Assembly (NCBI RefSeq): GCF_050920415.1
Contig: NZ_CP169309.1
From: Escherichia coli
Lineage (GTDB): Bacteria > Pseudomonadota > Gammaproteobacteria > Enterobacterales > Enterobacteriaceae
Strand: one strand, 5' to 3'
Length of the DNA: 64,000 nucleotides
Below the pieces are notes generated by a model. It ran no database searches and was not told the origin of the DNA. It saw nothing but the letters and a program-made list of their open reading frames with translations. This document shows, in pieces, positions 3,758 to 12,408 of this stretch. The translations under genes and the position numbers were made by a program. Each line of letters opens with the position of its first letter. Position 1 is the first letter of the stretch.

Positions 3758-6424
3758 ATGGAACCTTTTAAATATATATGTCATTACTGGGGGAAATCCT
3801 CAAAAAGCCTGACGAAAGGAAATGATATTCATCTGTTGATTTATCATTGCCTGGATGTTGCAGCTGTTGCAGATTGCTGGTGGGATCAATCAGTCGTACT
3901 ACAAAATGCTTTTTGCCGAAATGAAATGCTATCAAAACAGAAGGTGAAAGCCTGGCTGTTATTTTTCATTGCCCTTCATGATATCGGAAAGTTTGATATA
4001 CGATTCCAATATAAATCAGCAGAAAGTTGGCTGAAATTAAATCCTGCAACGTCATCACTTAATGGTCCATCAACACAAATGTGCCGTAAATTTAATCATG
4101 GTGCAGCCGGTCTGTATTGGTTTAACCAGGATTCACTTTCAGAGCAATCTCCCGGGGATTTTTTCAGTTTTTTTGATGCCGCTCCTCATCCTTATGAGTC
4201 CTGGTTTCCTTGGGTAGAGGCCGTTACAGGACATCATGGTTTTATATTACATTCCCAGGATCAAGATAAGTCGCGTTGGGAAATGCCAGCTTCTCTGGCA
4301 TCTTATGCTGCGCAAGATAAACAGGCTCGTGAGGAGTGGATATCTGTACTCGAAGCATTATTTTTAACACCAGCCGGGTTATCTATAAACGATATACCAC
4401 CTGATTGTTCATCATTGTTAGCAGGTTTTTGCTCGCTTGCTGACTGGTTAGGTTCCTGGACCACAACGGATACCTTTCTATTCAAAGAAGATGCACCTTC
4501 AGGCATACAAGCGCTAAGAAAATATTTTCAGGATAGACAACAGGATGCGTGTCGGGTACTGGAGTTGAGTGGCCTTGTATCAAATAAGCGTAGTTATGAC
4601 GGCGTACATGCCTTACTGGACAATGGCTATCAACCAAGACAATTACAGGTGTTGGTTGATGCTCTTCCTACAGCTCCCGGGCTGACGGTGATTGAGGCAC
4701 CTACGGGATCAGGTAAAACCGAAACAGCGCTGGCCTATGCCTGGAAACTTATTGACCAACAACTTGCGGATAGTGTTATTTTTGCCCTCCCTACACAAGC
4801 TACTGCAAATGCAATGCTCAGCAGAATGGAAGCGAACGCGAGCCGTTTATTTACCTCCCCAAATCTTATTCTTGCTCATGGTAATTCACGTTTTAACCAC
4901 CTTTTTCAATCAATAAAATCACGCGCATTTACTGAGCAGGGGCAAGAAGAAGCGTGGGTTCAGTGTTGCCAATGGTTGTCACAAAGCAATAAGAAAGTGT
5001 TTCTTGGGCAAATAGGAGTTTGCACGATTGATCAGGTGTTGATATCGGTATTGCCAGTTAAACACCGCTTTATCCGTGGTTTGGGAATTGGTCGAAGTGT
5101 TTTAATTGTTGATGAAGTTCATGCTTACGACACGTATATGAACGGCTTGCTGGAGGCTGTGCTCAAGGCTCAGGCTGATGTGGGGGGGAGTGTTATTCTT
5201 CTTTCCGCAACTCTACCAATGAAACAAAAACAGAAACTTCTGGATACTTATGGTCTGCATACAGATCCAGAGGAAAATAACTCCGCATATCCACTCATTA
5301 ACTGGCGAGGTGTGAATGGTGCGCAACGTTTTGATCTGTTAGCTCATCCAGAACAACTCCCGCCCCGCTTTTCAATTCAGCTAGAACCTATTTATTTAGC
5401 TGACATGTTACCTGACCTTACGATGTTAGAGCGAATGATCGCAGCGGCAAACGCGGGTGCACAAGTCTGTCTTATTTGCAATTTGGTTGACGTTGCACAA
5501 GTATGCTACCAACGGCTAAAGGAGCTAAATAACACGCAAGTAGATATAGATTTGTTTCATGCACGCTTTACGCTGAACGATCGTCGAGAAAAAGAGAATC
5601 GTGTTATTAGCGATTTCGGAAAAAATGGGGATCGAAATGTTGGACGAATACTTGTCGCCACGCAAGTCGTGGAACAATCGCTCGACGTTGATTTTGATTG
5701 GTTAATTACCCAGCATTGTCCCGCAGATTTGCTTTTCCAACGATTGGGCCGTTTACATCGTCATCATCGCAAATATCGTCCCGCTGGTTTTGAGATTCCT
5801 GTTGCCACCATTTTGCTGCCTGATGGCGAGGGTTACGGACGACATGAGCATATTTATAGCAACGTTAGAGTCATGTGGCGGACGCAGCAACATATTGAGG
5901 AACTTAATGGAGCATCCTTATTTTTCCCTGATGCTTACCGGCAATGGCTGGATAGCATTTACGATGATGCGGAAATGGATGAGCCAGAATGGGTCGGCAA
6001 TGGCATGGATAAATTTGAAAGCGCCGAGTGTGAAAAAAGGTTCAAGGCTCGTAAGGTTCTGCAGTGGGCTGAAGAATATAGCTTGCAGGATAACGATGAA
6101 ACCATTCTTGCGGTAACGAGGGATGGGGAAATGAGCCTGCCATTATTGCCTTATGTACAAACGTCTTCAGGTAAACAACTGCTCGATGGCCAGGTCTACG
6201 AGGACCTAAGTCATGAACAGCAGTATGAGGTGTTAGCACTTAATCGCGTCAATGTACCCTTCACTTGGAAACGTAGTTTTTCTGAAGTAGTAGATGAAGA
6301 TGGGTTACTTTGGCTGGAAGGGAAACAGAATCAGGATGGATGGATCTGGCAGGGTAATAATATTGTTATTACCTACACTCGGGATGAAGGGATGACCAGA
6401 GTCATCCCTGCAAATCCCAAATAA
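3758..6424 (+). CDS. cas3: Cas3 HD nuclease / DEAD-box helicase (type I-E)
   Basis: 888-aa ORF with an N-terminal HD domain (HDIGK), a Walker A motif (APTGSGKT) and a DEVH box; immediately precedes casABCDE. Confidence 0.95.
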   Translation: MEPFKYICHYWGKSSKSLTKGNDIHLLIYHCLDVAAVADCWWDQSVVLQNAFCRNEMLSKQKVKAWLLFFIALHDIGKFDIRFQYKSAESWLKLNPATSSLNGPSTQMCRKFNHGAAGLYWFNQDSLSEQSPGDFFSFFDAAPHPYESWFPWVEAVTGHHGFILHSQDQDKSRWEMPASLASYAAQDKQAREEWISVLEALFLTPAGLSINDIPPDCSSLLAGFCSLADWLGSWTTTDTFLFKEDAPSGIQALRKYFQDRQQDACRVLELSGLVSNKRSYDGVHALLDNGYQPRQLQVLVDALPTAPGLTVIEAPTGSGKTETALAYAWKLIDQQLADSVIFALPTQATANAMLSRMEANASRLFTSPNLILAHGNSRFNHLFQSIKSRAFTEQGQEEAWVQCCQWLSQSNKKVFLGQIGVCTIDQVLISVLPVKHRFIRGLGIGRSVLIVDEVHAYDTYMNGLLEAVLKAQADVGGSVILLSATLPMKQKQKLLDTYGLHTDPEENNSAYPLINWRGVNGAQRFDLLAHPEQLPPRFSIQLEPIYLADMLPDLTMLERMIAAANAGAQVCLICNLVDVAQVCYQRLKELNNTQVDIDLFHARFTLNDRREKENRVISDFGKNGDRNVGRILVATQVVEQSLDVDFDWLITQHCPADLLFQRLGRLHRHHRKYRPAGFEIPVATILLPDGEGYGRHEHIYSNVRVMWRTQQHIEELNGASLFFPDAYRQWLDSIYDDAEMDEPEWVGNGMDKFESAECEKRFKARKVLQWAEEYSLQDNDETILAVTRDGEMSLPLLPYVQTSSGKQLLDGQVYEDLSHEQQYEVLALNRVNVPFTWKRSFSEVVDEDGLLWLEGKQNQDGWIWQGNNIVITYTRDEGMTRVIPANPK

Positions 6425-6838
6425 CTTCGGGAATGATTGGTATCAATGACGATAACAAGACCAATAACGGTTTATCCCTACTTAAGTAGGGAAGGTGCAC
6501 AATGTACATCTTCTTTTAATTTCCCGGTATGAGATTTTATATTCACAGTATGAATATTTTATGTAATAAAATTTATGGTAATTATTATAACTAAAAATTT
6601 CTTTGATAATAAAACGAATAACTTGCAGATTTGAAATGCATGCATTATTGTCTTTAAACAATTCAACACATCTTAATATATGCATAGGTTAATTGTATTA
6701 AACCAATGAATATATTTTTGCAGTGAATGTGATTATTGAATTAATTACGCCGTATTTTTTCTTTGTTTTTACCGATAACGGAAGTGTGCCGACGTATAGA
6801 AATGCAGGAGAAATGTCGGAGCATATGAAGGAGAACAA
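6425..6838 (+). promoter_or_regulatory. AT-rich cas3-casA intergenic region carrying the Cascade operon promoter (H-NS/LeuO-regulated in K-12)
   Basis: 414-bp strongly AT-rich non-coding stretch directly upstream of casA. The promoter assignment comes from published K-12 work, not from exact motif positions read here. Confidence 0.45.
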
Positions 6839-12122: not shown

Positions 12123-12123
12123 A

Positions 12124-12408
12124 ATGAGTATGTTGGTCGTGGTCACTGAAAATGTACCTCCGCGCTTACGAGGCAGATTAGCCATCTGGTTGTTGGAGGT
12201 ACGTGCAGGGGTATATGTAGGTGATGTATCCGCAAAAATTCGTGAAATGATCTGGGAACAAATAGCTGGACTGGCGGAAGAAGGCAATGTAGTGATGGCA
12301 TGGGCAACGAATACGGAATCGGGATTTGAGTTCCAGACATTTGGGGTAAACAGGCGTACCCCGGTAGATTTGGATGGTTTAAGGTTGGTGTCTTTTTTAC
12401 CTGTTTGA
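12124..12408 (+). CDS. cas2: Cas2 adaptation protein
   Basis: 94 aa ([20 protein letters not shown]...) starting 1 nt after the cas1 stop and ending at the CRISPR leader. Confidence 0.92.

Follow-up and report, generated by a model that had tools for sequence, protein, structure and literature searches.

Type I-E CRISPR-Cas loci of Escherichia coli occur as two variants, cas-E2 with a GC content of 45.6% and atypical codon usage, and cas-E1 with a GC content of 53.5% (Almendros et al. 2014, PMC3903273). The hok-sok toxin-antitoxin pair is present in all strains except carriers of E2, in which the inserted module combines the upstream segment IG5 with the cas-E2 genes and an L2 leader (PMC3903273), and a survey published in 2025 reports that K-12-like strains retain only sokX (PMC12736100). 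We describe here the CRISPR-Cas locus in a stretch of 64,000 nucleotides of E. coli DNA (contig NZ_CP169309.1 of assembly GCF_050920415.1), which is referred to throughout as the window. Positions 3758-12408 constitute a K-12-type (“E2”) type I-E cassette of Escherichia, located at the usual site between cysH and iap. A probability of about 0.9 is assigned to the whole explanation, in which this identification is combined with horizontal origin, K-12-like regulation and a proposal for how the genes are translated. The low GC content, the codon usage, the cassette replacement and the loss of hok in K-12-type cas loci were already published in 2014 (PMC3903273), and what is reported on these points is a correct re-observation.

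The identification is carried by the genes, the array and the neighbourhood. All eight cas products score above the curated NCBIfam cut-offs of I-E-specific models in an equivalog search, and the signature genes of type I-E, cse1 (casA) and cse2 (casB), are present together with cas7e, cas5e, cas6e, cas3, cas1e and cas2e. The window reads cysJ (3' part), cysI, cysH, cas3, casA, casB, casC, casD, casE, cas1, cas2, the CRISPR array, iap (minus strand) and cysDNC, followed by ~45 kb of core genes; 62 annotated genes were mapped onto it, 8 cas and 54 others. The adjoining array has 29-nt type-2 repeats (GAGTTCCCCGCGCCAGCGGGGATAAACCG, 19 copies), 32-nt spacers and an AT-rich leader; it is itself GC-rich (0.598), unlike the cas genes, and three spacers at its trailer end are common to the window and K-12. 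The E2 type is indicated by a GC of 0.446 for the region and 0.461 for the gene mean (published values, E2 ~45.6% and E1 ~53.5%, PMC3903273), by the absence of hok with retention of the sok part, by an IG5-type upstream segment of 91 bp and an L2 leader that are 98-99% identical to those of K-12, and by nucleotide similarity to the K-12 cas genes (95.3-99.3% identity per gene, no indels). The only RefSeq genome with 100% identity, MFDS1022581 (a food isolate from Korea), is annotated with the same cas coordinates as the window. With only this genome fully identical and K-12 at 95-99% identity per gene, the possibility that the window is K-12 DNA itself was rejected. The array of MFDS1022581 holds 13 spacers compared with 18 in the window; spacers 4-8 are missing through an internal 305-bp deletion and the rest are the same.

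Base composition sets the cassette apart from its surroundings. The GC of 3758-12408 is 0.446, compared with 0.546 for 1-3400 (cysJIH) and 0.530 for 15011-17953 (cysDNC), so that the statement of an earlier note on this DNA, that cas3 and casA-E are more AT-rich than these flanking genes, is borne out. The cas genes have a mean GC of 0.461 (range 0.439-0.505) and the 54 other genes one of 0.529 (Mann-Whitney p=1.5e-5), and GC at third codon positions (GC3) averages 0.399 (range 0.365-0.441) and 0.569, respectively (p=4e-9); the immediate cys flanks have a GC of 0.536 and a GC3 of 0.592. At second positions (GC2) there is no difference between the cas and non-cas genes of the window (p=0.88), and the shift in cas GC therefore sits at silent sites. 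The codon adaptation index (CAI) is 0.209 in cas genes and 0.340 in the others (p=4e-6). The index was calculated with Sharp-Li weights, and the result is backed by a measure that uses no outside table, the Karlin codon bias relative to the pooled non-cas genes, which is 0.527 for cas genes and 0.329 for others (p=1e-5), with disjoint ranges among genes of at least 150 codons (0.424-0.582 versus 0.164-0.418, p=2e-8). In addition, eight rare codons (AGA, AGG, ATA, CTA, CGA, CGG, GGA and CCC) occur 77 times per 1000 in cas genes versus 34 in others, CTG supplies 18% versus 54% of leucine codons, and CCG 22% versus 64% of proline codons. The cas genes can thus be distinguished from core genes by GC, GC3, CAI, Karlin bias and rare codons alike, and an AT content above the host average with odd codon usage is the composition of acquired DNA that is silenced by H-NS. 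Elsewhere in the window, iap (13722-14759, minus strand) is as atypical as the cas genes, with a GC3 of 0.434 and a CAI of 0.237, and is present in every strain inspected, two cas-less ones included; since this low-GC3 gene is resident, the low-GC block reaches past the replaceable cassette. The toxin-antitoxin pair higB-higA (51824-52551, between hycI and ascB), with GC of 0.41 and 0.46, forms another small low-GC islet.

The left edge of the cassette lies within the cysH-cas3 intergenic region. The cassette had been described as flanked by two AT-rich control regions, 3401-3757 and 6425-6838, which holds for the latter (GC 0.300), but in the former only for 3667-3757 (GC 0.319). As a whole, 3401-3757 is a composite region with a GC of 0.437, ordinary for intergenic DNA of the window, and is mostly core DNA: 3401-3666 has a GC of 0.48 and is shared with cas-less strains. 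This core portion contains the cysH terminator and a remnant of hok/sok (Table 1); apart from sok, no Rfam family reached its gathering threshold anywhere in the window. Alignment to the cas-less strain CFT073 shows near-identity through the hok ATG at 3664-3666 and none beyond, and from 3667 onward, toward cas3, the sequence is homologous neither to that of cas-less strains nor to that of E1 strains. The hok frame of the window reads MCISL* and is cut to 5 codons, whereas an intact 50-codon hok occupies the equivalent site in CFT073 and in the E1-type strain AMSCJX04. Homology to CFT073 is back at ~13710, just before iap, which fixes the limits of the island at 3667 and ~13710.

Comparison with K-12 suggests that the cassette and the surrounding genome have separate histories. 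Pooled synonymous divergence (dS, Nei-Gojobori) from K-12 is 0.121 for the cas genes and 0.215 for twelve flanking core genes, and the synonymous p-distances are 0.112 and 0.187 (Fisher p=1e-11). With a dS about half that of the core, the cassette would therefore share a more recent ancestor with the cassette of K-12 than the surrounding genome does. Moreover, cysI (817-2529) and mutS (34573-37134) are only ~94% identical to ~5400 RefSeq E. coli genomes, and the window derives from a divergent lineage of Escherichia that has been classified as E. coli. This discordant divergence fits transfer or recombination between lineages. The ratio of nonsynonymous to synonymous divergence (dN/dS) relative to K-12 is 0.111 for cas and 0.022 for core genes, the higher value in cas reflecting relaxed constraint on the proteins.

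The distribution of the cassette was examined in 5426 complete E. coli genomes. The E2 cassette is present at a coverage of at least 80% in 1116 of them (~21%; 1133-1135 when sub-fragments are used) and the E1 cassette is found at the same site in 2420-2793 (~45-51%). The remaining genomes match neither, and the two that were inspected (CFT073 and a urine isolate) hold only hok between cysH and iap. The E1 cassette has a GC of 0.513, a GC3 of ~0.51 and a cas3-casA gap of 97 bp with a GC of 0.43; E1 is GC-normal, and cas genes at this locus are therefore not AT-rich as a rule. Patchy distribution and discordant divergence are both signs of acquisition that do not depend on composition. The cassette would, on these data, be a horizontally acquired module comprising the 91-bp segment upstream of cas3, the eight cas genes, the 414-bp spacer between cas3 and casA, the leader and at least part of the array. 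At this locus the module would have taken the place of the hok frame and, in other lineages, that of a GC-normal E1 cas set. The proposal that the cas genes are horizontally acquired AT-rich DNA of the kind silenced by H-NS, which the earlier note had made from composition, is supported by composition and codon usage, by presence/absence and allelic replacement at a fixed site, by a cas dS about half that of the core, and by a cas3-casA spacer that is 98.6% identical to the corresponding K-12 region.

The regulation of this region has been studied in K-12, whose cas genes are silent in the laboratory. Transcription of the Cascade genes, of cas1 and cas2 and of the CRISPR array is repressed by H-NS, and the spreading of H-NS along the casA (cse1) promoter is blocked by LeuO; CRP also acts at this promoter, and cas3 transcripts increase ~8-fold in a delta-hns mutant, in stationary phase only (PMC4782391). 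That H-NS and LeuO control the casA promoter region has been known from 2010 onward (see PMC4782391 for a summary). The promoter Pcas is flanked by a pair of extended AT-rich LeuO sites, I and II (PMC6698644), and a recent study locates the H-NS site on one fragment, the Pcas probe, together with the LeuO sites and the start of transcription, and adds LrhA as an activator (PMC12968389). In the window, no intergenic region is longer or more AT-rich than the counterpart of this region (6425-6838), and of all 100-bp windows in the 64 kb the two with the lowest GC (0.17 and 0.22) fall within it. The CRISPR leader (12409-12513) is a third AT-rich segment, absent from the earlier note, and contains the fifth lowest. 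Because the spacer is nearly identical to that of K-12, control by H-NS and LeuO is inferred for this strain also. The AT-rich cassette, with its spacer and leader extremely so, would be the kind of DNA that H-NS coats; the targets of repression by H-NS would be the promoter of the casA-cas2 operon, which lies in the spacer, the promoter of the CRISPR array and cas3, the last in stationary phase, and LeuO and other regulators would relieve this repression, as in K-12. Within the spacer there is also a perfect 16-nt palindrome, CCCTACTTAAGTAGGG (6474-6489), which lies 50 nt past the cas3 stop and is identical in K-12. It was considered as a terminator downstream of cas3 on account of its folding into a hairpin and of z=-2.2 for the 106-nt segment; as no T run adjoins it, a terminator was not called. 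A five-codon mini-open reading frame, ATGAAGGAGAACAAATGA (6824-6841), holds the casA Shine-Dalgarno sequence and at its end overlaps the casA start through an ATGA; the frame may be due to chance.

The AT-rich non-coding DNA of the island is conserved to an unusual degree. It differs from K-12 at 9 of 610 nt (6/414 in the spacer, the final 155 nt before casA being identical; 1/105 in the leader; 2/91 upstream of cas3), which is ~8-fold more conserved than cas silent sites (binomial P=9e-21 relative to the cas synonymous p-distance of 0.112, and P=0.0015 relative to the all-site cas divergence of 0.036). Across genomes, which are not independent samples, an identity of 99% or more is reached by the spacer in 425 of 1133 and by the neighbouring 414 nt of cas3 in only 4 of 1135. 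Such conservation would mark the AT-rich regions as functional and is consistent with a dense set of regulatory sites. At the insertion junction, the promoter/leader of hokX and SokX remain, 91 bp upstream of cas3. A -10-like sequence, TATAGAAT, lies directly upstream of the start of the hokX leader at ~3523, and no terminator-like site was predicted between this putative hokX promoter and cas3. Transcription that starts at the orphaned hok promoter could continue into cas3, and SokX (3567-3624, minus strand) would be antisense to such transcripts. A further speculation, which is considered quite improbable, is that the AT-rich non-coding pieces, instead of being passive filler, may form a selected “silence-until-induced” control module that moves with the cas genes between Escherichia lineages, and that the leftover hokX promoter/leader and SokX may feed or gate transcription of cas3, the control of which is still poorly defined.

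The arrangement of the genes bears on translation of the Cascade subunits. The genes casA and casB overlap by 8 nt and casD and casE by 14 nt, and gaps of 12, 2, 15 and 1 nt separate casB-casC, casC-casD, casE-cas1 and cas1-cas2, respectively; the four values given in the earlier note (casA/casB, casC-casD, casD/casE and cas1-cas2) are all exact. Such tight spacing is not distinctive, being the norm in operons of the window: among adjacent non-cas pairs on the same strand, 25 of 41 are no more than 15 nt apart and 18 of 41 overlap, and two of the seven cas pairs overlap. A recognisable Shine-Dalgarno sequence precedes every cas gene. Local RNA folding was predicted from -30 to +30 around the start for 61 genes of the window. 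The casC start (-2.0 kcal/mol) is the least structured of all, and those of casD (-18.4 kcal/mol, the third most structured) and casE (-16.2) are both among the five most structured. The same pattern is predicted for casC, casD and casE in K-12 (-2.8, -18.4 and -15.4) and in the E1 cassette (-3.8, -13.6 and -12.3). The geometry required for coupling is found at casB, casD, casE and cas2, the predicted starts of casA, casC and cas1 being open and those of casD and casE strongly structured. These folds make free initiation at casC, and lower initiation dependent on upstream ribosomes at casD and casE, likely. On this model the genes from casA to cas2 would be translated from one mRNA with short gaps and overlaps, the open casC start would permit a high rate of independent initiation for the six-copy subunit, and the structured, upstream-embedded starts of casD and casE would impose coupled, ribosome-dependent initiation on single-copy subunits.

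Several observations weigh against parts of this explanation and need to be set beside the alternatives. Low GC alone is no proof of foreign origin, as is seen from the GC3 of 0.434 in iap, a gene of all strains examined. A different base composition or local recombination could account for part of the lower dS of the cas genes, and the flanks are themselves mosaic, identity to K-12 being 99.7% for ftsB and 100% for the iap-cysD spacer. Moreover, cas3 contains a patch (4358-4957) with 66 differences from K-12 in 600 nt, compared with 2-5 per 200 nt in most of the neighbouring cas3 sequence, a mosaic which suggests intragenic recombination. With regard to silencing, H-NS occupancy in this strain is judged from the identity of its spacer to that of K-12. 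A 10-bp high-affinity H-NS motif (TCGATAAATT, up to 2 mismatches) is not enriched in the three AT-rich segments (one match in 3401-3757, one in 6425-6838 and none in the leader). A scan of 3380-6900 for the sigma-70 consensus found no excess of sites (5, with 8.7 expected) and no clear candidate for Pcas; two sigma-70-like sites on the minus strand fall within the spacer, and a consensus scan is uninformative in DNA as AT-rich as this. The proposal for translation has predicted local RNA folding as its only basis. As an alternative to acquisition, the low GC of the cas genes could have evolved locally, through relaxed codon selection in rarely expressed genes and AT-biased mutation, in a cassette ancestral to Escherichia and lost from most lineages. 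The silence of the cas genes in the laboratory (PMC4782391), and hence weak selection on their codon usage, would be in keeping with such a history, as would a cas dN/dS 5-fold above that of the core and the similarly low GC3 (0.434) and CAI (0.237) of the resident iap. However, a second I-E cassette, equally silent in principle, has a GC of 0.513 at the same site, the silent sites of E2 have diverged less than those of the flanking core, the opposite of what is expected of an ancient resident, and E2 always occurs with its own upstream segment, its leader and loss of the hok frame (PMC3903273). Local evolution from an ancestral cassette is consequently regarded as very unlikely, and horizontal acquisition of the E2 module is preferred.

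With respect to the junctions, tight spacing could serve mainly to enforce fixed ratios of Cascade subunits by strict translational coupling, and the earlier note had read the dense overlaps as an indication of coupling for stoichiometry. Short gaps and overlaps are indeed present, the order of overlap, gap, gap and overlap at casA/casB, casB-casC, casC-casD and casD/casE recurs in the divergent E1 cassette, albeit with different lengths, and the starts of casD and casE are buried in predicted structure inside or beside the upstream gene. Cascade, however, is not equimolar, consisting of one CasA, two CasB, six CasC, one CasD and one CasE, and coupling, which tends to equalise output, therefore cannot alone set these ratios. 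In addition, every gene has its own Shine-Dalgarno sequence, the casC start is the most open in the window, the same spacing occurs in 25 of 41 unrelated gene pairs, E1 and E2 have overlaps of different length, and the two variants have different types of junction at casE-cas1 and at cas1-cas2. Strict coupling as the main function of the spacing is therefore doubtful, and the original claim overreaches in that the spacing is ordinary, the ratios are 1:2:6:1:1 and the genes have their own ribosome-binding sequences; the structured starts of casD and casE nevertheless make a refined version plausible, in which coupling would operate at these two genes and casC would be initiated independently.

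Table 1. Features of the cas locus and its flanks, with positions in the window
Feature	Position	Strand	Details
cysH intrinsic terminator (core, outside the island)	3418..3449	+	14-pair hairpin followed by a T run; conserved in cas-less CFT073
hokX mRNA leader remnant (hok/sok toxin-antitoxin)	3523..3678	+	Rfam RF01794 sok, full-length, 97.1 bits (gathering 59), E=1e-20
sokX antisense RNA homologue	3567..3624	-	K-12 non-coding RNA sokX (b4701) maps here, 7 differences in 59 nt
AT-rich segment specific to the island, upstream of cas3 and at the left edge of the cassette; presumed promoter region of cas3	3667..3757	+	91 bp, GC 0.319; strong Shine-Dalgarno GGGAGG
cas3 (HD nuclease and helicase), 888 aa	3758..6424	+	NF007248, 1613 bits; GC 0.440, GC3 0.370, CAI 0.208
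cas3-casA intergenic region	6425..6838	+	414 bp, GC 0.300; counterpart of the K-12 region with Pcas, LeuO sites and H-NS binding site
casA (cse1), 502 aa	6839..8347	+	NF007247, 900 bits; GC3 0.376
casB (cse2), 160 aa	8340..8822	+	TIGR02548; Shine-Dalgarno AAGGAGG; 8-nt overlap with casA
casC (cas7e), 363 aa	8835..9926	+	TIGR01869; 12 nt past casB; CAI 0.300, highest among cas genes
casD (cas5e), 224 aa	9929..10603	+	TIGR01868; 2 nt past casC stop
casE (cas6e), 199 aa	10590..11189	+	TIGR01907; 14-nt overlap with casD; Shine-Dalgarno AAGGAGGT within casD
cas1e, 305 aa	11205..12122	+	TIGR03638; ATG at 11205 according to RefSeq annotation
cas2e, 94 aa	12124..12408	+	TIGR01873; 1 nt past cas1 stop
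CRISPR leader, L2 type, AT-rich	12409..12513	+	GC 0.276; 1/105 positions differ from K-12
CRISPR array	12514..13640	+	Repeat scan: 19 repeats (29 nt) and 18 spacers (32 nt); GC 0.598

Two further observations concern the intergenic DNA of the flanks. The iap-cysD intergenic region (14760-15010) shows no differences from K-12 in 251 nt and lies within a patch of low divergence (14722-15121), while the genes on either side have a dS of 0.38 (iap) and 0.20 (cysD); a recent recombination patch is one possible cause of this identity, and very strong constraint on the divergent promoter region of iap and cysD is the other. The cysI-cysH intergenic region (2530-2665) is 136 nt long, compared with 74 nt in K-12, through a 62-nt indel in a region that is otherwise collinear.

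The analysis adds to what was published in fixing the limits of the island, at 3667 and ~13710, and in recognising that part of the supposed control region is the remnant of a toxin-antitoxin system. It also shows that, in this divergent lineage, the cassette is closer to that of K-12 than is the surrounding core, and this is direct evidence of exchange. Smaller leads are that the AT-rich non-coding DNA is strongly conserved, that transcription from the hokX promoter may read through into cas3, and that the casC start is open and those of casD and casE closed; the first and the last concern the way in which a defence system under silencing maintains its control and the proportions of its subunits.

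Among described systems, the I-E locus of K-12 MG1655 (“cas-E2” of Almendros et al. 2014, PMC3903273) is the closest to that of the window. The two have the same gene order, gene lengths, junctions, 414-bp spacer and repeat, with identities of 99% for the leader, 98.6% for the spacer and 95.3-99.3% for the genes, and in both the hok frame is missing and sokX is kept. They differ in that the K-12 array has 12 spacers and that of the window 18, in the divergent 600-nt patch of cas3 and in the host background, which in the window is a divergent lineage with a core ~94% identical to that of nearly all E. coli. Silencing by H-NS and its relief by LeuO are reported for the near-identical region of K-12 (PMC4782391, PMC6698644). 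The cas-E1 variant, carried by most cas-bearing E. coli (for example AMSCJX04), has the same site, eight genes, order and repeat family and, like the window, an AT-rich leader, an open casC start and structured starts of casD and casE. It differs in GC (0.513 versus 0.446), in an intact hok, in a 97-bp cas3-casA gap with a GC of 0.43 (versus 414 bp and 0.30), in 4-nt ATGA overlaps and in having no megablast-level similarity to the cas genes of the window. The locus is also comparable with other targets of xenogeneic silencing by H-NS, such as the bgl operon and the Salmonella pathogenicity islands, in consisting of AT-rich acquired DNA in a host of 51-53% GC with extreme AT content at the promoter regions. 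It differs from these silenced islands in its cargo, which is a defence system, and in the unusual conservation of its non-coding control DNA.

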